NCBI GenBank assembly: GCA_934394435.1
Contig: CAKRRN010000008.1
Span: 4,290 to 68,289, forward strand
Source: an uncultured Bacteroidaceae bacterium
GTDB lineage: Bacteria; Bacteroidota; Bacteroidia; Bacteroidales; Bacteroidaceae
Reading direction: 5' to 3'
Length of the DNA: 64,000 nt
The notes below the pieces were generated by a model. It made no database searches, was not told the origin of the DNA, and saw only the letters and a list, made by a program, of their open reading frames with translations. Both the position numbers and the translations under genes were made by a program. Below are positions 4,087-18,579 of this stretch, piece by piece (the first letter of the stretch is position 1; each line of letters starts with the position of its first letter).

Positions 4087-5721
4087 ATGAACAACAACAT
4101 TAAAGAAAGGCTCACACCGCTACTCATCTCACTTGGTGTCGTTGTCGGAATACTGATTGGCACCTTCTGCACAAGCCATTTCTCAGGCAACCGTTTAAGC
4201 ATCATCAATACCGGCACAAACAAGCTCAGCTATCTGCTACAGATAATTGACAACAACTACGTCGACACCGTAGACATGGCACAGCTGGTAGAAGACGCCA
4301 TGCCTGGCATACTGAAAGAGCTCGATCCACACAGCAGCTACCTAAGCGTACAAGATGCCAAGGAAGCTGACGATGACCTGCGCGGCTCATTCAGCGGAAT
4401 AGGTGTTAGCTTCGTCATGCAGAAGGATACCGTAAACGTAATGTCCGTCATCCATGGAGGTCCCGCAGAAAAAGTAGGCATACTGGCTGGCGACCGCATC
4501 ATTACCGCCAACGACTCTAACCTCGTGGGAATGCAGTCACAAGACGTGATGAAACACCTCAAGGGAGCCAAGGGAAGCAAGGTCAAGCTGGGAATCGTAC
4601 GACACGGAGCAAAAGGCGTCACCACCTTCACCGTCGTACGTGGAGACATCCCCGTTGTAAGCGTAGATGCCTACTATATGATCAACGACGATACAGGATA
4701 CCTGCGCGTCAAGAACTTTGGTGAACAGACCTATGCTGAGATGCTGGTAGCACTGGCTGAACTGAGCGTCAAGGGCATGAAGGGACTCGTGGTCGACCTA
4801 CGAGGAAACGCAGGAGGATACATGCACATTGCCATACAGATGGCAAACGAATTCCTACCCAAAGGCAGACTGATTGTGTACACACAAGGGCGGAAAAGCC
4901 CCAGAGAGGAATTTCGGAGCGATGGGAGAGGCACCTTCCAGACAATTCCCCTGGTTGTGCTCATGGACGAGGGAAGCGCAAGCTCAAGTGAGATCTTCGC
5001 TGGAGCCATTCAAGACAACGACAGGGGAACCATCGTAGGCAGACGCTCCTTCGGAAAAGGACTCGTACAGCAGCCCGTAGAGTTTCGCGATGGGAGTGTG
5101 GTTCGCCTCACCATCGCACGATACTACACACCCAGCGGACGATGCATACAGAAACCCTATGAAAAGGGACATGGAGAAGACTACGAGAACGAACTCCTGG
5201 CACGCTACGAGCGAGGAGAATTCTTCTCACAAGACAGCATACACCAAGACGGACCCTCCTATAAGACACGTATCGGACGAACCGTCTATGGAGGAGGAGG
5301 TATTGTGCCCGATGTCTTCATACCAGAAGACACCACTGCCCTCACCTCTTACTACCGCGAAGCACTCTTAACAGGACACATACGGCAGTTCGCCTTCGCC
5401 TATACAGATGCCAACCGAGACAAACTCATGCAGTATCCCACAGCATCGAAAATGGAAGCCTACCTGCGCACACAGTCGCTGCTCGAACAATTCGCACGCT
5501 TCGCTGACAAGCATTCGCTCCGACGCAGAAACCTCATGCTCTACAAGAGCCGTCGCCTCTTCGAGCGTGCCATCTATGGAAACATCATCTATAATGCCCT
5601 CGACATGAGCGAATACATTCAATTCCTCAACGAAAGCGACCCGACCGTGCTACGCGCTGTAGACATCCTTGAGAAAGGAGAGTCTGTACCAAAGAAACCC
5701 CAGAAGGATAAAAAATCATAA
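4087..5721 (+). CDS. S41-family C-terminal processing peptidase with PDZ domain
   Basis: N-terminal TM anchor, PDZ block GPAEKVGILAGDRII, and catalytic block GSASSSEIFAGAIQDNDRGTIVGRRSFGKGLVQ. Confidence 0.9.
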   Translation: MNNNIKERLTPLLISLGVVVGILIGTFCTSHFSGNRLSIINTGTNKLSYLLQIIDNNYVDTVDMAQLVEDAMPGILKELDPHSSYLSVQDAKEADDDLRGSFSGIGVSFVMQKDTVNVMSVIHGGPAEKVGILAGDRIITANDSNLVGMQSQDVMKHLKGAKGSKVKLGIVRHGAKGVTTFTVVRGDIPVVSVDAYYMINDDTGYLRVKNFGEQTYAEMLVALAELSVKGMKGLVVDLRGNAGGYMHIAIQMANEFLPKGRLIVYTQGRKSPREEFRSDGRGTFQTIPLVVLMDEGSASSSEIFAGAIQDNDRGTIVGRRSFGKGLVQQPVEFRDGSVVRLTIARYYTPSGRCIQKPYEKGHGEDYENELLARYERGEFFSQDSIHQDGPSYKTRIGRTVYGGGGIVPDVFIPEDTTALTSYYREALLTGHIRQFAFAYTDANRDKLMQYPTASKMEAYLRTQSLLEQFARFADKHSLRRRNLMLYKSRRLFERAIYGNIIYNALDMSEYIQFLNESDPTVLRAVDILEKGESVPKKPQKDKKS

Positions 5722-5816: not shown

Positions 5817-6056
5817 TCAGAACCCTCTGTCTCTCCCTCTATTCCAGTTCACAGAGTCGCTTGCCTCTCCCAAGCACAGAAGCAGGATAATAGCAAGAAG
5901 CGGACTGCCCAAAAAAGCAACTATCAACCACGCTACAGCACTGCGGTTCCGCCTCTCTGCCATCTTCGCCACCAGAACATAAAGTACGACAACTATAGCC
6001 AGAGTGACAGCAGCCACCAACAATCCTAAGATTGCAAATCCAAAAACCTGAGTCAT
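5817..6056 (-). CDS. Small (79 aa) two-TM membrane protein, paralog of 6641-6952
   Basis: Hydrophobic segments. About 40 residues (LYVLVAKMAERRNRSAVAWLIVAFLGSPLLAIILLLCLGE) are identical to the 103-aa ORF at 6641-6952. The KxxxxxWxxxxxxxPxxG pattern resembles small PLDc_N-type membrane proteins; that assignment is weak. Confidence 0.5.
   Translation of the reverse strand: MTQVFGFAILGLLVAAVTLAIVVVLYVLVAKMAERRNRSAVAWLIVAFLGSPLLAIILLLCLGEASDSVNWNRGRDRGF
5869..5985. repeat. 117-bp direct repeat, copy 1 (partner at 6675-6791)
   Basis: Hand alignment to 6675-6791 gives 8 mismatches in 117 nt. The repeat lies inside the small membrane protein ORF. Confidence 0.85.
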
Positions 6057-6457
6057 TTCATTTTTATTTTTTTATTCTTAATATCAGAGAGCAACAACAA
6101 GCACGCACATCGTACAGCCACTCTCGTAAGCATTCCAGCAGGAAAACCTACAAAACAAAGTTAATATAATATTTTCTGGATAGAACGAAAAACAGCAAAA
6201 AAATCAAAAACCATAAAAAAGAACAAGCCCTTCATTCACAACACTATCCAAGATGTGTTTTTCTCAAATCGCTCATCTGAAAATTCAACTTTCCTTTTAT
6301 CTTCAAGCCGCAGAGGAAAATCCAGTATTCCGATTAGTCTTTATACCCCCATTTCCAATCTACAGACAAGCAAGCTTGATCAGATAAGCATAGGTTGTAG
6401 CTGTGAATTTGCGTCCTAAGTTCCCCTGGGGCTATCGGGTGAGTCCCCTCCCCCCTC

Positions 6458-6497
6458 AAAAAATAGGGCTGGCACTTCTCATAAGGTACCAACCCTA
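6458..6497 (-). terminator. Intrinsic terminator closing the island operon
   Basis: On the minus strand, a 12-bp stem (6497-6486 / 6475-6464, two G-U pairs) is followed by TTTTTT (6463-6458). It sits about 145 nt downstream of the stop at 6641. Confidence 0.6.
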
Positions 6498-6640
6498 AAT
6501 GATTTTTGTTGGAAAGAGATTACCGTACAGCAATAATTCTAAACAAATAAGAATCTTTACTCTTGCGCCTGTTACTATGCCACTCTGATAAGTCAACCTA
6601 CATTTAGTTTTTCATCATTTGTTTGTCAAAATATTTATAT

Positions 6641-6952
6641 TTATCGTATTGTTGAGTCGTTATTTTCTGATTCCCCCAAACACAAAAGTAGGATAATAGC
6701 AAGAAGCGGACTGCCCAAAAAAGCGACTATCAACCATGCGACAGCACTGCGGTTTCGCCTCTCTGCCATCTTCGCCACAAGAACATAAAGTCCTATAACA
6801 AGGGCAATAATTCCTATCACAAAACACAATACCCAAATGACCATTCCAACAATAAGCCAAATATTCTGTTCTTCGTCAAGACTGTCTGTCGTATGCGCAA
6901 AGATGAAGATAGGCAAAATGAATCCTAAAAGCAAGGTCATTAGTCTTTTCAT
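6641..6952 (-). CDS. Small (103 aa) multi-TM membrane protein, last gene of the island operon
   Basis: ATG lies 14 nt after the stop of the upstream gene. There are three hydrophobic segments, and the C-terminal about 40 aa are identical to the 5817-6056 product. Confidence 0.55.
   Translation of the reverse strand: MKRLMTLLLGFILPIFIFAHTTDSLDEEQNIWLIVGMVIWVLCFVIGIIALVIGLYVLVAKMAERRNRSAVAWLIVAFLGSPLLAIILLLCLGESENNDSTIR
6675..6791. repeat. 117-bp direct repeat, copy 2 (partner at 5869-5985)
   Basis: See copy 1. All differences fall in a stretch where the two encoded peptides are identical, so they are synonymous. Confidence 0.85.
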
Positions 6953-6966
6953 GTCTTTCCTACCTA

Positions 6967-7530
6967 TTAAAGTTCTTCCAATTCAGCATCACCATCCGTA
7001 TTCTCCGTTTTCAAGAACGAGAGGAACAGTCGCAGAAAGGCAGTCTCTTTGAAGAAACAATTTGGGTCTACCTCCATCTGTTCTGAAATGTAGGAAAGTC
7101 CGTAGTTTGCATACTGCTCCATCTTGTCAATCAGTTGGTCCACAATCTTCCTGCTGCTAACTTCTCCTTTGTCCAAAGCAATCAAATCGACATCTGTGCG
7201 AGCTATCAATGCAGCAAAAATAAACTTCTGGAGTTTCTCGTAAGGCATTCTGCCCCCTCTGGGCTCAATATTACCCCATTTCTGTATTGGCCACCCAAAC
7301 TTCTTTCTCTTTGCTCTGTCCTCTACCAATGGCTTAGTGCTGTCAAAGTACAGCCCTATGAAGAATGCTATGATAAACATTTCATAACCTGCTCCATATG
7401 GTTTTGCGCGAACAGCCTGATAAGAATTTCGCCCACGACCATAGTCACAAAACACATCCATGACTGACTCTTGATATCGAGTTTCCCATTCAGGGTCTCT
7501 CCTGCTCCATAATTCGAATAAACTCTCCAT
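6967..7530 (-). CDS. Island protein, 187 aa, unknown function (partner of the DndD-like ATPase)
   Basis: ATG lies 2 nt after the stop of the 722-aa gene. AT-rich codon usage matches the island. I recognise no motif. There is one hydrophobic stretch, YEMFIIAFFIGLYF. Confidence 0.65.
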   Translation of the reverse strand: MESLFELWSRRDPEWETRYQESVMDVFCDYGRGRNSYQAVRAKPYGAGYEMFIIAFFIGLYFDSTKPLVEDRAKRKKFGWPIQKWGNIEPRGGRMPYEKLQKFIFAALIARTDVDLIALDKGEVSSRKIVDQLIDKMEQYANYGLSYISEQMEVDPNCFFKETAFLRLFLSFLKTENTDGDAELEEL

Positions 7531-7532
7531 CG

Positions 7533-9701
7533 TTATTTTAGTTTTTCTACCAAAGTTCTTATTGTTGCCATGTTTCTATTGTCGAAATTGGCTGCTTTCT
7601 TTATACGATAAACAATACACGTCAGCTTATCTACTTCGTTTATACGCAGTTCTCCCTTTGTAATAAAGTCTTTTGTGACAATGATGCATTGTTTGTTCAG
7701 TTTATCAATGACATTATAGAATCTTTCTTCTTTAGAATCTCCAAAAGATGATGTTGCGGCATCAAATATAAGTGGGTAGTTTTCATCGCGTTTCTGGTCT
7801 GTGAAGTCGGAAATTGCGAATAGAACAGATATGTACATTACGGTTTCCTGCGAGCCAGAAGGCTTTTTGATTTCACTACCATTAGAACTAAAGAGTTTAA
7901 TCTCTGTGGTGTCCTCTATAGTATGACACAAGCGTATCTCCCCATGGAAGTCCTGTGCGCTCAGTTTCTCCAGATATTCGTTTGCCCGATCTTCCAGATC
8001 AGCAAGAAAGCGTCGCAGATTCTCCTTTTTCGCGTTCTCAAATGCTTTTGCTATTTGTTCCAGCACAAGGTGAACATCTTGATAAACCTTTACCAGACTA
8101 TTCTGTGGGTTCAGTTCACCAAACTTCTTGCGCAATTCTGTTTCCTTTTCTGTCAGACCTTTTAGTTCTTCCTGTAAGTTTGTCAAGCGTTGCACTGCAC
8201 GTTCCTTTTGTTCGAACATGTTTTTGATGTCCTTGAAATCCTTTTGAAGCAATTCCTCTGGCATATTATCAGCCTGAATAAGCAGTCGTGCCTTGTTGTC
8301 TTCCGCATCCTGCTTCTTTTCATTCTCAACTTTAAGGTCTGCACGCCATCTGTCTTCAAGTTGCAAACGGTCATCTATATCAGATGCGATACGAGCAACC
8401 TCTGCTTCCGTACTTCCACCCAAATTTATACTCAGGTTATGTATTTCCTCAACATAGTCCGAAACGAACAGTTGCTTTTCTTCAAGTCTCGTTCTCGCTT
8501 CCTCCAGTTTGGCTTTTTCTTCTATGTGTCTTTTGTATTCTCTGAGTTTGTTAACCATGAATTCATAAGCAGCAGACCCTTCTGGGGCTGGTCTTCCACA
8601 AACCTTACATACATGGTCGTTTATCATCTCCTGCATGGTTTCTTCATTCGGAAGATACCAGGGCAACTCTGGCACTCCGTTAGCCAAAAGTCCCCTAACC
8701 TCGTTATAGGCTTTCAGTTTTCCTCTTTCCATTCCTCTCTGCTCATCGAATTCCTTTTCTTGAAACCGTTTCGCCTTACTATATTGCTGACTCTTCTTTT
8801 TAAACTCAGCCAGTATGGAAGAAAAAGCGCAAAGAATCCATTGTTTGTCCAGCAGAGCCGCATTCTTGTCCACAGCAGAAATGTTTGCCTTCAACTTACT
8901 GATTTTATCACTAAGCGATTTGATGCGCTCACTTATCTCATTGTACCGCTCTGATATTTCCTGGTTTTCTGCAAGTGCGTCCAGTTTTGTCGAGTATAGA
9001 TTTATAGAATCATTTTTCTCCTTTATTTCCTTCTTCTTTTCCAGAATTTCCCCAGACAACCGATTCAGTTGTGCTTCCAGAAGCCGCGCCTCATCTGATA
9101 TTTTTTTATCCGACTTACATTCTTTCAGAAAAGCAGAATTTGATTTCTCTTCAAAGATGGCTGAGAGTTTCACTAGTTCATCAAACTTACGTATGTCAGA
9201 ATATTTATCCACAAGTTCTTTCAGCGCAGTCCTATCCTGAAACACATTCAAGTCAGATTCTCCCTTAAACATACTATACCTCTGGATAAAAGCATCAAAA
9301 CATCTGTTGATAAGGTTTTTTCCAGAAATAGGTTCACGCTCTATGCCGTTTCCCTCGTATCCTCTGAATGTAAGTGATGATGTAGAGAACTCGGATTCTG
9401 ATTTACGTTCAAATGAGAAACGCTTCTCCACGTACTTTTCTTCGCCATCATGCTCAAACAACATAGATACCATCAGCTCGTCACTTTCTCCAACCTCCAG
9501 TTTTGACTTTCTCATCTCCGAAACGTTATCGATGCTGTTGTTTTCAACAGATGTATTGAACAACCATTGCAGAGCCTCAAAAAAAGTGGTTTTTCCATCG
9601 CCATTATCCCCGATGATGAGTGTCAGACCATCAGAAAACTCGAAGCTATTCTCTCCGTAATAACTTCGGAAATTTTTTATTGTCAGTCGTTTAATTAGCA
9701 T
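7533..9701 (-). CDS. DndD-like SMC/RecF-type ABC ATPase with coiled coil and CxxC hook
   Basis: N-terminus LTIKNFRSYYGENSFEFSDGLTLIIGDNGDGKTT (Walker A). Long K/E/L-rich coiled coil interrupted by HVCKVCGRP (CxxC). C-terminal SGSQ signature-like block and PLIFDAATSSFGD (D not followed by E, as in the DndD IDTPLGRLD block). Confidence 0.75.
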   Translation of the reverse strand: MLIKRLTIKNFRSYYGENSFEFSDGLTLIIGDNGDGKTTFFEALQWLFNTSVENNSIDNVSEMRKSKLEVGESDELMVSMLFEHDGEEKYVEKRFSFERKSESEFSTSSLTFRGYEGNGIEREPISGKNLINRCFDAFIQRYSMFKGESDLNVFQDRTALKELVDKYSDIRKFDELVKLSAIFEEKSNSAFLKECKSDKKISDEARLLEAQLNRLSGEILEKKKEIKEKNDSINLYSTKLDALAENQEISERYNEISERIKSLSDKISKLKANISAVDKNAALLDKQWILCAFSSILAEFKKKSQQYSKAKRFQEKEFDEQRGMERGKLKAYNEVRGLLANGVPELPWYLPNEETMQEMINDHVCKVCGRPAPEGSAAYEFMVNKLREYKRHIEEKAKLEEARTRLEEKQLFVSDYVEEIHNLSINLGGSTEAEVARIASDIDDRLQLEDRWRADLKVENEKKQDAEDNKARLLIQADNMPEELLQKDFKDIKNMFEQKERAVQRLTNLQEELKGLTEKETELRKKFGELNPQNSLVKVYQDVHLVLEQIAKAFENAKKENLRRFLADLEDRANEYLEKLSAQDFHGEIRLCHTIEDTTEIKLFSSNGSEIKKPSGSQETVMYISVLFAISDFTDQKRDENYPLIFDAATSSFGDSKEERFYNVIDKLNKQCIIVTKDFITKGELRINEVDKLTCIVYRIKKAANFDNRNMATIRTLVEKLK

Positions 9702-9705
9702 AGTC

Positions 9706-9942
9706 CTATACGCTTTTCTTTAAAAATTCCGTAATTTCCTTGTAGATTTCTCTGTCAGAAGCTCCCTCTGAAGCGCGTATAATAATATGTGCCACAGCAT
9801 TTATAACATAATTGTCAGAATCCTCAGCTTGGTAAGCAGAGGTGAAATTCAAGTCGCTTTCGCTATACTTTCCAAACTTCATCAGTTCTGGATTGAGCAG
9901 AACAGCCTCCAGCATTTTGTCGTTGTTAGTCATGTATGCCAT
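9706..9942 (-). CDS. Island protein, 78 aa, acidic, unknown function
   Basis: Sits between the helicase gene (2-nt gap) and the SMC gene (4-nt gap). No recognisable motif. Confidence 0.5.
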   Translation of the reverse strand: MAYMTNNDKMLEAVLLNPELMKFGKYSESDLNFTSAYQAEDSDNYVINAVAHIIIRASEGASDREIYKEITEFLKKSV

Positions 9943-9944
9943 AT

Positions 9945-12167
9945 CTATAAAATTGATAGATTATAATATGAAACAGTTTCTTCTAATTCTCTGTATGTAT
10001 AGTCCGCATTTTCTGAGAGAGAAGCAAAATCACGCACACGTTTCAGTTCTATCTCAAGCAGACTCCTTTCCATGTTGTAACTTTCTTCAGAGTCGCTAAC
10101 CCATGGTGCAACTATCAAGTCATGGATTATCGCTCGGTGCTTGTCCTTATGCTTACGCAGGATTCTTCCTCTTCTCTGCACAAATTGCCGTGGGTTACCT
10201 GTACTTGCACAAAAAATAGCCATTTCGCTACGCGGCACGTCGACACCTTCGTCCAGACACTTCATGGATGTCAAAACTTCAAGACGCCCGCAGGCAAAGT
10301 CATCCAAGAGCTTGGTACGTTCTCTGGAATCTGAGGTAAACTCCCTTACGGTCGTTTGCGGACTTGTTCTGTAGACCATCTGGGTGTATCTGTCTATCAG
10401 ATGTTCAGACACTTCATCCACTCCCAAAGCATCTGTTGTCTCGAACAAATCTGAAACCGCGTCTGGGCTGTTTCCTTCAGGAACATAAACCAACGTATAT
10501 TTCAGATTGCCCTTTTCTTTGTATCGCTCCTTCAGTATGGCCTCAAATACAGGCTCCTTCTGCTGGGCTTTATGAATAATGCGCTTTCGCTTCAGCAAAA
10601 GAGCTGTCAATATGTCGTTCCCTTGTGCGAACGAATCTCTGTCATAACTAAAGAATTTAGAAAGTTGCCTTGATATTCTCAGATAATCAGCCATTTCCGC
10701 ATCGTTCAACCTCACGACATGAGGATAGTAATAATAACGGCACAGGAAATCATTATCTATGGCCTCACGCATCGAATACTCGAATGTAAAACCATCCGTA
10801 CTACCAAAGAAAGTATTTATCCTCTGGTTACCCAAGTCATCAAACTGACGGTAAGGAGTGGCAGACAAGCCTATTCTTCTCAGATAGCGGATGCTGTCCA
10901 TTCTATCCAGCATTCTCCTCGACCCCATATTATGTGCCTCATCTGCAATCAAAAGAGTTCTATTCTTCGAGAAAGAGTTGAGAGAAGAGAACACATTGTC
11001 CCTTACAAACGAGGAATAGGTTGAGATGATAATGAATGAGTCACCACATCCAGACCGATTAAAGTCTTCTTTCAGATGAAGCAAATCCACCTCGTTTCTC
11101 CAATTCTTGTTTTTAGAATAGACAGTATAGACATTTGAGAAGTCGAACTTCTTGCATTCATCCACCCATTGCTCTACCAATGTTTGGGTTGGTACAAGGA
11201 TGATTGCTTTATAATATCCCTTCCTCTTATAAATCTCCAACAAGCAATTGAGCGATGTAATGGTCTTGCCTGTACCTGTTGCCATCGCAAATAGACCTTT
11301 TTGCCCATTGCTCTTCCAATTTTCGAAGGCTTGATGCTGATATTCGCGAGGACCAGAAGGATAAGGAAAATGAGGCTCTTTGGTATAGTTGTCTTCGCAT
11401 ACCATAGGTAAGACATCGCTCCTATCTGCTTCTGTTCTCCTTTCCTTTATATTCTTGAGTTTCCTTTCCACATCGAGCAATTCTTCCACATCCTTACCTC
11501 CAAAAGTAGACACGACCGCCACCTCAAGTTCTTTGGGAGAAAGATATTCTACCCCTCCCTTTTGATGACTCATAATTGATTCGAACTCTACCCGCTGGCT
11601 TTCTATGCGCTTGCGCACCATAGTGTCAATGCTGTCACTACGATCAATTTTGATTTCCTCTATATTATTGAACAAACCGCTTACCGTGAAGTTTGCAGAA
11701 CCCGTAAAGGAAGTCACACTATCTCCGTCCCTAAACTGTCCAGATTTCGTATGAGCAATACCTCTACGATTACGTGGACATATGATACGAATGTCTATCC
11801 GCTTGTTATAAATAAGGAATGCAAGGCATTCGAAAAACTGCTGCTGATATTCGTCTAAGGTTTGTCTTAACGACTCAAAGTCAGTTAGGTCAAAGCAGTC
11901 TATCAACCCACCGTATACGCCTTTGCTTATGGCATTTTTGTCTGACTCTGAGACTATATGATTTATCACAAGGCGCATTCTTCCACCGTTGACGATAAAT
12001 GTGGCAAATCCATCGGCAAGCACACTTATCGCAGCTGAACTGAAATAGCCCAGTTGAAGGTCAAACTCTGTACTATTTCTCAACCCATCATTGAAGAATC
12101 TCTCTGGTGAATTATATTCTCCAGGACGATAAGTGCCGTCCTCTGCCCAGTTTACATCATATAGCAT
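9945..12167 (-). CDS. PLD-family (single HKD) nuclease domain fused to SF2 DEAH helicase
   Basis: N-terminal IAHTKSGQFRDGD...GSANFT (one HKD-like motif). Helicase motifs: LFAMATGTGKT (I), LIADEAHNMG (II), LGLSATP (III), QRRGRILR (VI). ATG at 12167 is preferred. The ORF-track start at 12203 is a TTG that overlaps the upstream gene. Confidence 0.8.
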   Translation of the reverse strand: MLYDVNWAEDGTYRPGEYNSPERFFNDGLRNSTEFDLQLGYFSSAAISVLADGFATFIVNGGRMRLVINHIVSESDKNAISKGVYGGLIDCFDLTDFESLRQTLDEYQQQFFECLAFLIYNKRIDIRIICPRNRRGIAHTKSGQFRDGDSVTSFTGSANFTVSGLFNNIEEIKIDRSDSIDTMVRKRIESQRVEFESIMSHQKGGVEYLSPKELEVAVVSTFGGKDVEELLDVERKLKNIKERRTEADRSDVLPMVCEDNYTKEPHFPYPSGPREYQHQAFENWKSNGQKGLFAMATGTGKTITSLNCLLEIYKRKGYYKAIILVPTQTLVEQWVDECKKFDFSNVYTVYSKNKNWRNEVDLLHLKEDFNRSGCGDSFIIISTYSSFVRDNVFSSLNSFSKNRTLLIADEAHNMGSRRMLDRMDSIRYLRRIGLSATPYRQFDDLGNQRINTFFGSTDGFTFEYSMREAIDNDFLCRYYYYPHVVRLNDAEMADYLRISRQLSKFFSYDRDSFAQGNDILTALLLKRKRIIHKAQQKEPVFEAILKERYKEKGNLKYTLVYVPEGNSPDAVSDLFETTDALGVDEVSEHLIDRYTQMVYRTSPQTTVREFTSDSRERTKLLDDFACGRLEVLTSMKCLDEGVDVPRSEMAIFCASTGNPRQFVQRRGRILRKHKDKHRAIIHDLIVAPWVSDSEESYNMERSLLEIELKRVRDFASLSENADYTYRELEETVSYYNLSIL

Positions 12168-12181
12168 AACATATTGGATTT

Positions 12182-13282
12182 TCAGATAAAACAATTGGCA
12201 CAAACGTATTCATCACCAAAAAGTTCAGCGAGACTTGTACCTTTGTTCTTGCTTTTGTTGGCTTCCTGCCGCTTGATGATATCCAACTTTACCTGTCGAA
12301 TGCGCTCCGGCTTAATTAAATCAGCCAAGCTCTCATTCTGAATCCAAGTATAGCCATCCTTTTCAAAAGACATTGCTTTCTTGTATAGGTCAGGATGCTG
12401 CTCGTAGAGCCAAATCCACTCTATTTTCTGTTGAAAGAAACAGAAATAGCAACCACTTCTACTACGACAATAAGTGCCTGTTTTACCATCTACCTCGAAA
12501 GGGATCTCTTCATAATAAGCAGGCACTCCCACTCCGCTTTCTCTCAACAGCCGGAAGATGTCTTCCTTTACCAAAACCTCATCATTATCAATCAGCGGAA
12601 ATGAATCAAGATGACCTACTGGATAATCAGTAGTCTTCAAAAAATCAAACACAGCATGATTGAACATCTTCACATTTACGTCCAATAATGCATTCAGCTT
12701 CTTGGAGTAAAAGAATTGTTTGGTGATAGGCTTTTTAAGGACGTCCATCAAGTCCTCTTTCATCATGCCATCTGGGCACAATTTGTCATAGATGTCGATA
12801 ATCTGCTCTTGGTTTTCCTTATGCAAGAACTTATTGATAACATCCACACTCCAGATATTCCTTCTGAAAGGAAAGACTGACTGAATATTTGGTTTGGATG
12901 ATACATAGCCATCACGGTCTTCATCACCACGGATTCCCACGTACGAAACCGCATAGTCATCGCCCACATACCTCTCAAACTCATCCAGTTTCATTTTCTT
13001 AGTACACCAACGAGCTTGTGGTGAAGGCAAGAAGCCTCCAGCAGCTTTCAAGAAATGCTCAAAAGGCGTTGGCTCAGGACTGTCTTCCGCAGCCCTAAGT
13101 CTTTTGATACTTCCGAGATAAGCACTCAGTCTATCTATCAGTAGTTCTGTCTCCGCCAACTCACACCCAGTATCCGAGTTATAATACTCAATCTTCAAGG
13201 TTGGGTATTTCTGTTTGAGATAGATGGCAAGTGCAGCACTATCCTTTCCACCAGATATTCCTAATATATTTCGTACTTTCAT
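12182..13282 (-). CDS. PP-loop ATP pyrophosphatase of the PAPS-reductase/DndC/SspD-like family
   Basis: N-terminal ILGISGGKDSAALAIYL (SGGKDS PP-loop) and a C-terminal Cys cluster YCRSRSGCYFCFF (C-x6-C-x2-C). 366 aa. Confidence 0.8.
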   Translation of the reverse strand: MKVRNILGISGGKDSAALAIYLKQKYPTLKIEYYNSDTGCELAETELLIDRLSAYLGSIKRLRAAEDSPEPTPFEHFLKAAGGFLPSPQARWCTKKMKLDEFERYVGDDYAVSYVGIRGDEDRDGYVSSKPNIQSVFPFRRNIWSVDVINKFLHKENQEQIIDIYDKLCPDGMMKEDLMDVLKKPITKQFFYSKKLNALLDVNVKMFNHAVFDFLKTTDYPVGHLDSFPLIDNDEVLVKEDIFRLLRESGVGVPAYYEEIPFEVDGKTGTYCRSRSGCYFCFFQQKIEWIWLYEQHPDLYKKAMSFEKDGYTWIQNESLADLIKPERIRQVKLDIIKRQEANKSKNKGTSLAELFGDEYVCANCFI

Positions 13283-13306
13283 TTTCGTTTTTGTTTGCAG
13301 AAAAGA

Positions 13307-16300
13307 CTATTTGCCTAACTTCTTATTTAATATTTTCAGTAATGTGCATACTGACACATTGTCGTTTTCTACCCTATCAAGGAGTTTGTCTATATTTTTT
13401 TCCAGTTCCTCCGATTTCTGCAATTCACTCTCTGGCAATCGGAATGTTTGAGAATGAATGTTATTTCCCTTGGTAGAAACTAAATCCAGCGAATAGATTT
13501 CATCCGACTCATATTTAGCTACTTTCGAGATATCCGAGTATTTCTCACATTCACGAAAGAGCATAATCAGACTATCAATCAACTTCTCCTCTTGCTCATC
13601 ACGCAATCGCTCCAATGGCTGTTCCAATGCAGTATAACATATTGATTGATACCATTCATTCCTATTGTCAAACTCAGCCATCACATGCTGATAGAATTCT
13701 TTCAATCTATCCGTTAGCAAATACTCTTTGACATTGGCAAGACGTTGTCTTATCGTTACAACGTATCCTGAATAATCGTAAGAGTCAATGCCCAATGTGT
13801 CAAGCAAACGGCCTTCCACACGGTCTATCATATCGGAATAGCAAGAACGCAGTTCCTTGACAGCACGGTTGATTACATAGCAAAATTCCTCTACTTTCTT
13901 TGGATTCTGCAATGCTTCCTTATCATAGCCCAATGTCTCAGGCAAATCTTCAAAGAAGGTTTTCTCTGGGTCTTTTGCCTTAGCTAATGTATCACGGAAC
14001 TTTGCCGTCTGCTCATGATTGAACTTACGGGTATGCTTGGCATAGTCATTCAGTCTCTTGTTGTAGAAGAAAAAGAACGGTTTGATGGTCTCTATGAAAT
14101 CATCGCTCTTGATACTCCCCATAGCCTCAACGTTCAGAAACTTTCTGTACTGATTAAAGATTTGCACCTTTACTCCCGTCACATCAAAAGCCTTGATAAA
14201 ATATTCACCTGGATGCTTCTGCAACAATTCAAAGAACTCCATATTGATGTTCGGAATATAAGCTCCATTGGCTCCATATAGAGAGTAGTCTTGCTTCTTT
14301 ATATATAAATAGGTAGGAATCCAAAAGTCCAAGAATCCTTGCTTCAATTTATATGGTTTAGCCGACAACTTCTTTATCAGTTCAGAAATCTTACGAGCCT
14401 TAAAAGTTGTCGATTTCAAAAACTCTTCACATGCTTCCCACAAAGGCATAATTCCCTCATTAGAGGGCACATCAGAGAACTCCCCATTCATATGAAGCCC
14501 CGTGCTTTTCAACAGAGAATAATAGATGGTCTTCTCTGGAGGAAATTTATCGGCAGGGAATCCTAAATCAGCCTCACTGCTTTGGCTTAGCAATGCAGCC
14601 AAGTACTTTCCCTTAGCACAGGATATGGAACTGCTCAACTTATGCTTATTAAACAATTCGTTATTCATCACTGGTGTTTGTGAATAAATCTCATCACAAA
14701 CCACAGAGAGCAACTGGTTGAATTCTCGCAAAGAGCGGACTTCTCTTTCCTCTCCCTTGAATATCCATGTGACATCTCCACTATAAGCAAACAAGCTCTC
14801 GCTGATAGACTTATTGAGCACCACCTTCTCATACTCCATCAGGTTGTTTATCTCATTGATTGCCACCTTGTCCGACTTATCAATCAGGACTTTACTCAAT
14901 ATGTATTTGAATTTCTCTATTTGATAAAGATGAGATACCAACTCGTCAGTATTTCTAAAACAAACAAAGATGATAGCATTTTCACTCTTCGCGCTGAGTT
15001 CACAAAGCTCCTCTAATACAGTTTTATGAGATGAAAATATCAGCTGTATGAATCCATCTGTATCGCCAACAGGAGTTTTATCCGCACCTTCTCCAAGCAC
15101 CTCATATTCAAAATACCTTGGAGTTCCTTTTTGGAAATAGCAAGCCTTTACTGGAGCTACCTTCTTGAAACAATAGTTTCTGATGTCATCCACATAATTC
15201 ACAGGACGACTCACCACCAATCCCGCTTTGCGTATCTCATCCTCTATGTTTATGTCTGTTCCATCAAACAAAATATAACGGAGCTTATAGTTGGCATAAC
15301 GGATTATCTTGAATTGCTCCAACTTATTCAAGAGACTCGTTGGGTTCTCTATATCTAAAGCCATCTTTGCATACGCAGCTGTTTTCTCTCGGTTCATTTT
15401 GAAAGAAGAATTGCCAAAAAGGTTCAATAAACCAATAGCCTTCACCAACTTGATGGCATCTACCAAATCCGTCTTCGTATTCCAAAGTTGTCCCTCCACT
15501 CTCTCAATGGCGACTTGCATAGAACTCCATTGCATAGAATCGGCATTAGCCTCTTTCAGATAAGAGTAGAAGTTGTAATAAATGTAATCATAGCAGCACT
15601 GAAGCTGATAGACCTTACCAGCAAACTCCGACAAAGAGTTTCGTCCCCTTGCATTCAAGAAAGAAAACAAGGAGCGTTCGTTTTGTCCGTATCGCTGAAT
15701 GGCTTGCGTAATAACACAAGCGGCAAAAGGCTCTAATGGAGACAACGCATGAGCGGTCGCTTTCGAGAAACTTTGAGAGACAAAACCCGTCTTCTTCGCT
15801 AATGAAGCCAAAGATTCTATTGTCTTTTCGTTGCTCCGCTTATCCAACAAATCTGACTTTATCTGCATCGAAGCCAAATAAAGAAGTTGCTCTACAGGCT
15901 CCACAAATACCAACTCCTGGAAACGTCCCTTTACTTTGGTCCACTCCTCCTTTTGAACCTCGTTGAGCTTTCGCGAATATGCGTTGAAATTCTGATGAAG
16001 TGTAGTCAAAAGCAAAATGTTTCTTGTTGGCACATTGACAAATTCTGCCAACTTTTGCATAAAGTAAAGTTCTCTTTCTGGATTATTCTTGGCTGCATGC
16101 TCCAAGACCTTGCCAAATTCATCAATAAAGATAACCAAAAACTTACCTTGGCTCTTCAGCTTATTGTATCTATTGCGAAGCTCGTCAAGAATGCTACCTG
16201 TTGTGCCCTCCACAGATAGTTTCTGACTTAACAACACAGAAAGTTCCTTATAGTCACCAATAATTTTAAGAATCTCGAATCTCTTTTTCCCCGAAAGTTC

Positions 16301-16531
16301 CGTAGGATTCAACAATTCATATTGCTTTCCACCCATCAAGTCTCTCTCTAATGCCAACAAGAAACTTGATTTACCCGTTCCGTATGAGCCAATAATCGTA
16401 TAAGAATGAACCCCAGAGCGGAATCCGTTTACGATACCCTCAGCCACCTGTCGGGCATTGGGAGTAACTATATATTGAGCCTCTTTCGCAAAGCCCTCTT
16501 CTATATTTGCGGATAAACTAAACTGTCGCAT
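13307..16531 (-). CDS. Large (1074 aa) P-loop NTPase, SspC/BrxC-like by position and motifs
   Basis: Walker A IIGSYGTGKSSFLLAL and Walker B FLVIFIDEFGKVLEH near the N-terminus. The remaining about 850 aa have no motif I recognise. The start overlaps the upstream gene by 14 nt. Confidence 0.7.
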   Translation of the reverse strand: MRQFSLSANIEEGFAKEAQYIVTPNARQVAEGIVNGFRSGVHSYTIIGSYGTGKSSFLLALERDLMGGKQYELLNPTELSGKKRFEILKIIGDYKELSVLLSQKLSVEGTTGSILDELRNRYNKLKSQGKFLVIFIDEFGKVLEHAAKNNPERELYFMQKLAEFVNVPTRNILLLTTLHQNFNAYSRKLNEVQKEEWTKVKGRFQELVFVEPVEQLLYLASMQIKSDLLDKRSNEKTIESLASLAKKTGFVSQSFSKATAHALSPLEPFAACVITQAIQRYGQNERSLFSFLNARGRNSLSEFAGKVYQLQCCYDYIYYNFYSYLKEANADSMQWSSMQVAIERVEGQLWNTKTDLVDAIKLVKAIGLLNLFGNSSFKMNREKTAAYAKMALDIENPTSLLNKLEQFKIIRYANYKLRYILFDGTDINIEDEIRKAGLVVSRPVNYVDDIRNYCFKKVAPVKACYFQKGTPRYFEYEVLGEGADKTPVGDTDGFIQLIFSSHKTVLEELCELSAKSENAIIFVCFRNTDELVSHLYQIEKFKYILSKVLIDKSDKVAINEINNLMEYEKVVLNKSISESLFAYSGDVTWIFKGEEREVRSLREFNQLLSVVCDEIYSQTPVMNNELFNKHKLSSSISCAKGKYLAALLSQSSEADLGFPADKFPPEKTIYYSLLKSTGLHMNGEFSDVPSNEGIMPLWEACEEFLKSTTFKARKISELIKKLSAKPYKLKQGFLDFWIPTYLYIKKQDYSLYGANGAYIPNINMEFFELLQKHPGEYFIKAFDVTGVKVQIFNQYRKFLNVEAMGSIKSDDFIETIKPFFFFYNKRLNDYAKHTRKFNHEQTAKFRDTLAKAKDPEKTFFEDLPETLGYDKEALQNPKKVEEFCYVINRAVKELRSCYSDMIDRVEGRLLDTLGIDSYDYSGYVVTIRQRLANVKEYLLTDRLKEFYQHVMAEFDNRNEWYQSICYTALEQPLERLRDEQEEKLIDSLIMLFRECEKYSDISKVAKYESDEIYSLDLVSTKGNNIHSQTFRLPESELQKSEELEKNIDKLLDRVENDNVSVCTLLKILNKKLGK

Positions 16532-17381
16532 TCTTATAATATTTATCTAAAACGTCTATGCCTGTTAAAGAAAGACCTTCCCTAAACAATAGCTGACGAA
16601 TACCAGCATTGTCACTATACTGAACATAATCAGAATACGCTTCACCAATAGATTGTACCATATCTATCACCTCTGCGTCTGTCATGCAGAACATCAACCC
16701 AATCTCTTGCAAAGTATCGTAAGAAACGGACTTATCCTCACCTTTCTCTTGCAAAATAGCATATAGAAAGATTTCCATAGGGACCTTTCGCTTGCCCTCA
16801 ATATTAAAGGTGAACGATTTGCCATTATCCTCTGTTCTGATTAAATCCAAATCTATGAGAAGAGAAGAATAATCCTCAAAAGACTTTGCCTTATAAGGCT
16901 GGGCATAGTTTTGCAACAAGACACCCACGTCCTTCTTGGTAGTATTGGCATTAAACGGTTTGTCTTTCCTATCATCTATCATGAGTCTCTTGACAAAACT
17001 TACAAGCTGGTCTCTCTCAAAAGCCTTTCTTTCTTTCTGAAACTGTACAAAAGCGATATGATAAAGAGTTGCCTCTCTTTGACTTACTAACAGGTAATGA
17101 AGCAACCACAATGTTCCCAAACTCTCGATGTACTTATCTACGCCATCTGTTCCGTCAAAAAGATATTTCGCTATCTTTGTTGGCTTATCTTGCTCAGACA
17201 ATCCGAAAACCTTCAGCCAATAACGGATAGAAGAAACCATATTCTTGCCTACCCCCAAAGCGACAACCGCATCAGAAGCATTGAAGTTTCCTCCATCTAT
17301 CATAAAATTATATCCCTTGGTGAGCCATAAAGTTTTACAAGGAAAAGATTCATGCCCAGAGAGCGTGTATTTATTGTACAT
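16518..17381 (-). CDS. DUF4007-like protein (SspB-like), first gene of the island operon
   Basis: N-terminus LSGHESFPCKTLWLTKGY and LGVGKNMVSSIRYWLKVFGL match my recollection of the DUF4007 signature (GHE.F..R..WL.K / LGVGKNMV.S.RYW). 287 aa. Confidence 0.65.
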   Translation of the reverse strand: MYNKYTLSGHESFPCKTLWLTKGYNFMIDGGNFNASDAVVALGVGKNMVSSIRYWLKVFGLSEQDKPTKIAKYLFDGTDGVDKYIESLGTLWLLHYLLVSQREATLYHIAFVQFQKERKAFERDQLVSFVKRLMIDDRKDKPFNANTTKKDVGVLLQNYAQPYKAKSFEDYSSLLIDLDLIRTEDNGKSFTFNIEGKRKVPMEIFLYAILQEKGEDKSVSYDTLQEIGLMFCMTDAEVIDMVQSIGEAYSDYVQYSDNAGIRQLLFREGLSLTGIDVLDKYYKNATV

Positions 17382-18137
17382 CTATCCAGTAAAGACAGCC
17401 GAATCCCAAAGCCGAAATGTTTAATCCTCCTGCGTTTGTACCTCTACAAAAAAGGAAGCGTGGGATCCTTCACTTGCCCATCCCACTACTCGAAGGCCTT
17501 CGCATTGCCCAACTGTCGAGACGGACAATGCAGAAAGCCCACGCTTGTATGGCATATAGCTCTGCATATAAAGGAAACAGCACGAAGGACACAAGACACT
17601 ATCATGTCCGCATCCACACACATAACTGTTCGCTGCAGGTTACAATACACCTACCGTGGACATTCACCCATTGTCTCACCTGCTGACAGTTTGGTAAAGT
17701 TGCGAAGTTTACGAGTAGTCGCAGACGAGCGTCAAGTAAACGCCCTTTCCGTAAAAGTAGCACCCTCCCCACCCCCTCTGGGGCTTTCTGCGAGGATAAT
17801 GCCTTGCAAATATAAGGATTTTTTATATACGGTTATCCGTCAAAGCACTAAAACAATATAATATTCTCATCCTTTTCCAACTCCTCAAACGTTAGCGGAG
17901 TGCTCCACCTGCCATAAGACTCTACGCAGAAGCATCACTACACCAACCTCGGGCGAAGAGACGACGGAACACTCTATCCCCAAAAGCTATGGATGGATAA
18001 CGTAAATGTGAATACAGACTAAGTATGCCTTCGCACAGCGACAACAGGAGAGGAAAAAGGCTCTGGAGAGAGAAAGGGTAAAAGGAATTTCCCACACTAA
18101 TCAAACTCTCGAAATCTTAATCTTATAGTTCTTAAAA

Positions 18138-18287
18138 CCAAATCGGTCATTAGAAAATTTTGCTTCCATTTTATCTCAAAATAGAGCAAAAGTCACGTAT
18201 TATGTTAGCATACAGATACTATAACGAGAGTATAACCTGATATAGTCTAACTTTTTGCATGGGAAAAATCTCTAATGACCGATTTGG
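18138..18287. mobile_element. MITE-like element, about 150 bp, with 17-bp perfect terminal inverted repeats
   Basis: CCAAATCGGTCATTAGA (18138-18154) is the exact reverse complement of TCTAATGACCGATTTGG (18271-18287). No ORF lies inside. The same TIR occurs at 24753/24949 and 50702. Confidence 0.6.
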
Positions 18288-18579
18288 GTTAAACAAACAG
18301 TAAGCAAACAAAATGAAGTACAATATCTCAAAAAAAAGACCGCTTCAAAGATGCAAAATCTGGGCAAAAGGAGAGAATTTTTAGCACTTTTGCTCTCGCA
18401 AGTGTCTCGAGACATGTACGAAGCCATTGTGCCCACAATTTTCCCTTCGCTCGGAGCAAACATAAGTGGAGCGGAATTTCTGTATCACGACCTCTCATGG
18501 AAGGAAACGAGCGGTATGTAGACCTATCCTGGTGGCAGGAAATTTATCTTATGCAAAGATTTATCCATTCGGGGATTTT

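Follow-up and report, generated by a model that had tools for sequence, protein, structure and literature searches.

The 64,000-nucleotide (nt) stretch analysed here, hereafter the window (positions 4,290 to 68,289 of contig CAKRRN010000008.1, assembly GCA_934394435.1, from an uncultured Bacteroidaceae bacterium), holds a row of minus-strand genes in which an ATPase of 722 amino acids (aa) is flanked by open reading frames (ORFs) for a 78-aa and a 187-aa protein. An original prediction, made from the letters alone, described this trio as a DndD-like SMC ATPase bracketed by two small proteins, in an island that also carries the SspBCD-like genes of DNA phosphorothioate (PT) modification. All three ORFs, their 2- and 4-nt spacings and every motif quoted for them are present in the window. 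The genes, in order of transcription, are as follows:

sspB, 16518-17381, minus strand: 287 aa, DUF4007 DNA-binding subunit of the PT writer and gene 1 of the operon (Pfam DUF4007, 4e-75; PADLOC SspB, 3e-88).
sspC, 13307-16531, minus strand: 1074 aa, large AAA+/BrxC-like ATPase of the writer (PADLOC SspC, 1179 bits).
sspD, 12182-13282, minus strand: 366 aa, PAPS-reductase-type sulfur transferase of the writer (PADLOC SspD, 4.6e-83).
pbeA, 9945-12203, minus strand: 752 aa, HKD (PLD) nuclease fused to an SF2 helicase (PADLOC PbeA; TIGR04095).
pbeB-position gene, 9706-9942, minus strand: 78 aa, acidic and all-helical, assigned by position.
pbeC-like gene, 7533-9701, minus strand: 722-aa coiled-coil ATP-binding cassette (ABC) ATPase (Pfam, PADLOC, BLASTP).
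pbeD-like gene, 6967-7530, minus strand: 187 aa, divergent member of the 'DNA phosphorothioation-associated protein 4' family (hhalign).

The stop codon of pbeA lies 2 nt before the start of the 78-aa gene, which is separated from the 722-aa gene by 4 nt, and the 187-aa gene follows after a further 2 nt. This order of nuclease-helicase, small ORF, ABC ATPase and small partner is common to the window, to canonical Pbe loci, which we took from plasmids of Ruegeria, Pseudanabaena, Halococcus and Lactiplantibacillus plantarum, and to at least 70 related loci. The PbeABCD module was described as consisting of PbeA, PbeB (66 aa), PbeC (SMC-like) and PbeD (152 aa) (Xiong 2019, PMC6459918); in haloarchaea its defence requires PT together with all four pbe genes, a PT-modified virus escapes, and replication is blocked with no visible degradation (PMC6459918). 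In a later re-annotation (Rakesh 2024, PMC10853773), PbeA is an HKD nuclease joined to an SF2 helicase, PbeB a rapidly evolving small regulator, PbeC the sister of DndD, an ABC ATPase with a 'CxC' zinc hook, and PbeD a DndE cognate and DNA-binding partner. The two papers differ on whether the HKD domain cuts DNA, Xiong 2019 saying that it does not and the re-annotation arguing that it does.

The 722-aa protein carries a Walker A motif (GDNGDGKTT, residues 31-39), the sequence HVCKVCGRP (363-371), an SGSQ signature (615-618) and the stretch PLIFDAATSSFGD (643-655), of which residues 643-647 form Walker B. The CxxC pair (C365 and C368, within CKVC) falls at the midpoint of the protein, and K37, C365, C368 and D647 are invariant across 52 orthologues. 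Together with Pfam matches to AAA_23, AAA_15 and SMC_N that cover residues 3-676, these motifs bear out the description of an ABC head of Rad50/SMC type, split by a coiled coil that carries a cysteine hook at its tip. The Walker B motif was also correctly described as lacking the Glu, as in DndD, since Asp647 is followed by Ala here and the real DndD block reads VIIDTPLGR.

The family to which this ATPase belongs is a separate matter. Its top PADLOC matches are PbeC models (best 2.6e-22), and BLASTP aligns it with Ruegeria PbeC over the full length (E 7e-17) at a low identity of about 22%. Against real DndD, BLASTP aligns only the first 45 residues, the P-loop region (E 0.008), and the DndD compared has neither a CxC nor a CxxC pair, so the 722-aa protein is not DndD; a DndD model is likewise missing from its NCBIfam matches and from the 25 PADLOC matches listed. 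The term 'DndD-like' therefore holds for the superfamily and the phosphorothioation setting and fails for the DndD family itself, on the HMM searches, the 45-residue alignment and the hook that DndD lacks. Among solved structures, the heads of Rad50 and SMC proteins come closest, and Rad50/SbcC shares with our protein the split ABC head and an antiparallel coiled coil tipped by a CxxC; nevertheless, the similarity is confined to the N-terminal head lobe, the arms of the 722-aa protein are much shorter, and the operon has no gene of Mre11/SbcD type, so a Rad50/SbcC-Mre11/SbcD identity was rejected. On these sequence comparisons, the ATPase is best described as a predicted PbeC equivalent, whose homology is to PbeC and not to DndD.

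The 187-aa protein has 733 homologues in the databases and no match in Pfam or NCBIfam, nor a credible one in PADLOC. We built a family profile of 42 members (exhaustive HMMER search, 215 representatives) and compared it by hhalign with canonical PbeD, which carries the NCBI name 'DNA phosphorothioation-associated protein 4'. The family matches Pseudanabaena PbeD at 95.4% (E 1.9e-8) and a profile of the four canonical PbeD sequences at 94.1% (E 1.2e-7), and both share an EEYANGGL-type motif. The PADLOC PbeD model is of little use for this family: it touches 3 of the 42 members, at E of about 0.01, and across the phylum yields one spurious match in 401 genomes. At 187 aa the protein is longer than the four canonical plasmid copies (143-167 aa). 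An AlphaFold2 model (pLDDT 82, pTM 0.80) shows a strand-helix-helix unit twice, followed by C-terminal helices, an order compatible with a double ribbon-helix-helix and offering no evidence for DndE; Foldseek against the Protein Data Bank (PDB) returns nothing for the model (best E 3.2), and the family profile finds chance matches only among PDB sequences. An alignment of 52 sequences contains invariant residues.

A DndE identity for the 187-aa protein, the other possibility raised in the original prediction, was rejected by HMM, by profile-profile comparison and by fold search. Pfam DndE (PF08870) matches none of the 42 family members, and hhalign against a DndE profile built from PF08870 matches gives 4.4% for the 187-aa family and 0.6% for canonical PbeD. 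Because the corresponding values for PbeD are 94-95%, the PbeD link is supported here and the DndE link comes from the literature. The suggestion of a 'DndE-like or dnd-associated' partner is thus upheld in its second half through PbeD homology and lost in its first, and the 187-aa protein is, by profile comparison, a predicted remote homologue of PbeD.

Two further observations concern this family. Several PbeD-like proteins of about 190 aa from Alloprevotella, Paraprevotella and Bacteroidaceae are named 'glycoside hydrolase family 15' in NCBI and UniRef, which looks like a propagated misannotation. In seven of the related loci described below (L038:10049-11197, L044:12180-13541, L045, L046, L047, L058 and L085), PbeD carries a C-terminal extension that brings its total length to 249-483 aa; the extensions are homologous to one another and match nothing in Pfam, and no separate gene after pbeD in other loci corresponds to them.

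The 78-aa protein is acidic, as had been stated (isoelectric point, pI, 4.7), and AlphaFold2 predicts a compact fold of five helices (pLDDT 89) with no counterpart among PDB folds (best E 1.3). It has no match in Pfam or NCBIfam, and in PADLOC only one of 12.8 bits (E 0.005) to the middle of an SspC model. It has 72 database homologues, invariant residues occur in an alignment of 52 sequences, and in 72 of the 80 related loci the protein is found, each time between pbeA and pbeC. Canonical PbeB sequences are not alike among themselves, and the position and size of the 78-aa protein fit PbeB; it is a putative PbeB equivalent, by position alone. Could the two small ORFs be spurious or decaying, with the ATPase the sole real gene? 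The fact that no library recognises either protein would suit such a view, but the 733 and 72 homologues, the position and length kept across about 70 loci, the invariant residues and the pLDDT values of 82 and 89 leave it with a negligible chance. Because of these homologues and the position kept in about 70 related loci, the 78-aa and 187-aa ORFs are real genes and not chance ORFs.

Upstream of the trio, PbeA matches the PADLOC PbeA model from end to end (1034 bits) and TIGR04095, dnd_restrict_1 ('DNA phosphorothioation system restriction enzyme'); the latter match (5e-117) does not reach the curated cut-off of 600 bits. Among 52 sequences, H151, K153, D159, G168, S169 and N171 are invariant, as are the GTGKT, DEAH and QRRGR motifs. 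The true start of pbeA is probably the ATG at 12167.

To place the operon among its relatives, species-representative genomes were scanned, yielding 80 loci with PbeC relatives 45-87% identical to the 722-aa protein, nearly all from Bacteroidales (Prevotella, Segatella, Bacteroides, Parabacteroides, Muribaculaceae, Alloprevotella and Coprobacter). With the window proteins as tblastn queries, the order and strand sspB-sspC-sspD-pbeA-pbeB-pbeC-pbeD are kept in 55 of the 80 loci; in the other 25, a contig end cuts the cassette or PbeB is too diverged for tblastn. A conserved eighth gene after pbeD was sought in the related loci and none was found. Co-occurrence was then assessed in an even draw of 300 genomes from the same order, to which the window's own genome was added. 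SspD is present in 14 of these and a close PbeC in seven, with one additional contig-end fragment; in all eight PbeC-bearing genomes, including that of the fragment, SspD and PbeC share a contig and lie no more than about 8 kb apart, and five of the 14 SspD genomes are without PbeC. It had been envisaged that the trio might prove to be known only as an independent, already named system. A named system does exist, PbeABCD, but the trio is part of a conserved seven-gene operon and not merely adjacent to sspBCD.

Seven loci of the set (L018, L022, L031, L054, L071, L083 and L090), with PbeC 47-69% identical, come from bins labelled Lachnospiraceae, Oscillospiraceae, Bacilli, Flexilinea, Gastranaerophilales and Erysipelotrichaceae. 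Their cassettes are either mis-binned Bacteroidales contigs or cases of cross-phylum transfer.

The degree of linkage bears on whether PbeABCD reads PT at all, as it could instead be an autonomous sensor of DNA ends or replication, of Lamassu or Rad50 type, that lies beside SspBCD through the clustering of defence genes. The Lamassu LmuB model of PADLOC matches the 722-aa protein over its full length (E 4e-20), and Lamassu also resembles the trio as a defence ATPase with small partners; moreover, 320 of 553 PbeAC pairs occur without dnd genes (Xiong 2019, PMC6459918), and Rakesh 2024 (PMC10853773) questions whether PT restriction is the dedicated role of Pbe. The Ssp and Pbe blocks also recombine freely. 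However, PADLOC finds no LmuA or LmuC homologue here, the neighbours being PbeA and PbeD, and a Lamassu identity was rejected. Gene order, strand and short or overlapping gaps are kept in every assessable locus at 45-87% PbeC identity, so the linkage is far tighter than defence-island adjacency. The eight-of-eight co-occurrence in the even sample, the PT writer, Dnd or Ssp, adjoining every distant Bacteroidales Pbe module examined, and the PT dependence of haloarchaeal Pbe (PMC6459918) likewise speak against an autonomous sensor, which we regard as improbable.

We next compared how the proteins of the operon have diverged, correlating pairwise protein distances across 51 complete loci and the window, with bootstrap ranges. 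Correlation is high within SspB/C/D (0.79; 0.74-0.84) and within PbeB/C/D (0.77; 0.70-0.83), the highest single value being that of PbeB with PbeC (0.85), and low between Ssp and PbeBCD (0.29; 0.15-0.44). PbeA correlates with PbeBCD at 0.48 and with Ssp at 0.23. The operon thus consists of three co-evolving blocks, SspBCD, PbeBCD and, between them, PbeA. That PbeB, PbeC and PbeD evolve as one unit fits with a physical complex. The Ssp block of the window is nearest to that of locus L013 (89-96% identity), and its Pbe block to those of L011 and L012 (79-89%), so the shuffling shows in the window itself; the two halves are swapped by recombination with the gene order left unchanged.

Pbe modules are also found with another writer. 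Two genomes, G005 (congeneric with that of the window) and G596, carry a more distantly related Pbe module directly after dndC-dndD-dndE; its PbeC is 24-27% identical to that of the window, with a CxxC in G005 (CEVC, the Rad50-like form), and its PbeD belongs to the same family (hhalign 98.9% in G005, tblastn in G596). In G506, a module of this kind faces sspBCD in convergent orientation. Since it occurs beside DndCDE in two genomes and beside SspBCD in the third, the Pbe module pairs with either type of PT writer. The Dnd-linked PbeA of G005 (L114:549-3329) has 926 aa, including about 200 additional N-terminal residues with no equivalent in the PbeA of the window.

A role of PbeC and PbeD in writing can be weighed against these results. 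In that case, the two would act as a pair resembling DndD/DndE that finds targets and directs modification by SspBCD or extends it, giving the system two alternative scanning ATPases. In Rakesh 2024 (PMC10853773), the hooked ABC ATPase and its partner are DndD-DndE cognates that may trigger modification or report its status, and the gene arrangement indicates that pbeC and pbeD are co-transcribed with sspBCD. On the other side, IscS and SspBCD gave PT-linked d(CpsC) in Escherichia coli JM109 (PMC8092258), so SspBCD writes PT without a Pbe partner. Five of the 14 sampled SspD genomes have no PbeC, the evolution of PbeBCD is independent of that of Ssp (0.29 between the blocks and 0.77-0.79 within them), PbeBCD travels with PbeA and also with Dnd writers that already own DndD and DndE, and the 187-aa family has no significant DndE match. 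We consider a function in writing very unlikely.

We therefore favour, at a probability of roughly three in four, the reading that the trio represents divergent PbeB, PbeC and PbeD of a PbeABCD module that forms the second half of a seven-gene operon, sspB-sspC-sspD-pbeA-pbeB-pbeC-pbeD. The homology of PbeA, PbeC and PbeD, the intact motifs, the gene order and the co-evolution of PbeBCD are observed directly, while PT dependence, a mark-reading subunit and DNA cutting would apply here by analogy with Xiong 2019 and Rakesh 2024. The best-supported description is a defence system composed of a writer (SspBCD) and an effector (PbeABCD), not two redundant ATPase pathways. The original prediction had seen in two ATPase modules a new division of labour; the division stands, SspC belonging to the writer and the 722-aa protein to the effector, but it is not new in principle, as it follows the known Dnd-Pbe logic of writer and effector.

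In such a system, SspBCD, with a cysteine desulfurase encoded elsewhere, would place PT marks on host DNA. PbeC would dimerise in the manner of Rad50 through its putative zinc-binding CxxC hook and its ATP-engaged heads and, with PbeB and PbeD as obligate small partners, might clamp or scan DNA and sense whether it bears the PT mark. On unmarked invader DNA, the PbeBCD complex would engage or license PbeA as HKD nuclease or SF2 translocase, and PbeA, once engaged, would block replication or cut the DNA.

Several findings weigh against this interpretation. The PbeC matches of PADLOC are confined to the N-terminal 300 residues of the 722-aa protein, and the full-length LmuB match is nearly as good as that to PbeC. 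Its hook is CxxC, where the four canonical PbeC proteins carry CIC at positions 339-347, the CxC that gives the published clade its name. Equivalence of the 78-aa protein to PbeB comes from position, hhalign against canonical PbeB giving 0.3%, and PbeD is acidic (pI 5.0), which is unusual in a DNA-binding subunit. Xiong 2019 saw no DNA cleavage, yet the HKD motif is intact here. Finally, the correlation between Ssp and Pbe is weak, and tight matching of writer and reader specificity is therefore not evident.

Among described systems, the closest are DndCDEA-PbeABCD of Haloterrigena jeotgali A29 (PMC6459918) and its bacterial counterparts such as that on Ruegeria pTHAF33_d, which share the four-gene order, homologous PbeA, PbeC and PbeD, and a place directly downstream of a PT writer. 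In contrast to these, the writer here is SspBCD rather than DndCDE, the hook is CxxC rather than CIC, and PbeC is only about 22% identical; PbeD has 187 aa instead of the 143-167 aa of the plasmid copies and the 152 aa of Xiong 2019 and lies outside the NCBIfam and PADLOC models, and the 78-aa protein is conserved, predicted to be folded and unrelated in sequence to canonical PbeB. The CxC ABC-ATPase systems of PMC10853773 likewise combine a hooked coiled-coil ABC ATPase and small partner with an 'SP' protein and an HKD-SF2 enzyme. They differ in having CxC where we find CxxC and a disordered small protein where ours is not, and the DndE relation of their partner is not reproduced (hhalign 4.4% and 0.6%); in term searches of that paper they appear coupled to Dnd genes or methylases, and no mention of an Ssp partner came up. 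DndD-DndE resembles the trio as a PT system with an ABC ATPase of a related clade, a Walker B without Glu and a small partner gene next to it. It differs in the missing hook, a BLASTP match restricted to those first 45 residues and the failure of PF08870 to match the 187-aa protein, and no DndC is encoded nearby. The SspABCD-SspE and SspABCD-SspFGH systems (PMC8092258) have the same SspBCD writer and a co-located effector, whereas the effector here, PbeABCD, is unrelated to SspE or SspFGH.

Other genes are found within the operon in some relatives. Loci L062 (3892-7469) and L025 (3941-7486) have a three-gene insert between sspD and pbeA, and spacing implies about 15 more such loci (e.g., L064, L067, L074-L076, L082 and L084). 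It encodes an unknown protein of about 545 aa, one of about 370 aa that weakly matches ATPases of BrxC/BrxD type and an unknown one of about 277 aa, none of which is matched by PADLOC; it may be an extra effector or regulator module within the operon. A different insert at the same junction in L041 (5682-7497) encodes an unknown 182-aa protein and a 425-aa DndB-family protein (Pfam DndB, 1.8e-32). In L025, from Parabacteroides distasonis, a RhuM-family gene (1824-2828; Pfam, 2e-106) lies between sspC and sspD.

At the genomic level, the operon sits in a region of lower GC content, about 40% from roughly 6000 to 18000 of the window compared with about 50% around it. One more gene follows on the same strand:

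103-aa membrane-protein gene, 6641-6952, minus strand: 14 nt after pbeD, outside the conserved cassette, a paralogue of the 79-aa ORF at 5817-6056.

Among the related loci, L011 and L012, the two nearest, are alone in having this membrane protein. Its ORF and the 79-aa one each contain a copy of a 128-nt direct repeat (5866-5993 and 6672-6799, 91% identical). Just past gene 1 of the operon, a 33-nt inverted repeat (18129-18161 and 18264-18296, 85% complementary, arms 102 nt apart) beyond sspB looks like a miniature inverted-repeat transposable element. An empty insertion site was sought in the genus; because the two flanks sit on separate contigs in every relative, at identities of no more than 66-78%, the borders of the island are not definable. 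The island has no match in the E. coli genome collection.

With respect to novelty, our literature search found no paper on an Ssp-Pbe operon, although Xiong 2020 (Nat Microbiol) may mention it; Sun et al. 2020 counted 'PT genes + pbeA-D' with haloarchaeal queries and did not split ssp from dnd. Relative to the described PbeABCD, the new features are the Ssp partner, the Rad50-like CxxC hook, the larger PbeD and the predicted folded PbeB. Whether SspBCD-PbeABCD is a distinct type of PT defence, widespread in gut and rumen Bacteroidales, in which a CxxC-hooked ATPase with two co-evolving, obligate small partners would read Ssp PT marks and license an HKD nuclease-helicase, is a broader proposal whose chances we judge to be evenly balanced. 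Bacteroidales isolates that bear ssp are known to carry CpsC (PMC12914056).

If correct, an effector would be assigned to part of the large class of 'solitary' sspBCD clusters. Among 2,678 such clusters, SspE or SspFGH is adjacent in only about 16%, leaving about 84% without either beside them (PMC8092258), and eight of the 14 sampled Bacteroidales genomes with SspD carry a Pbe-type module. Annotation tools catch PbeA only and PbeC weakly, and the small subunits are missed by Pfam, NCBIfam and PADLOC, so that such loci are scored as modification-only Ssp. The Pbe reader would then work with Dnd or Ssp writers, and the occurrence of the same module on either writer in related bacteria constitutes a natural experiment that could reveal which Pbe subunit senses PT. 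As the carriers are abundant commensals of the human and animal gut (Prevotella, Segatella, Bacteroides and Muribaculaceae), the system would be relevant to the traffic of phages and plasmids in the gut.

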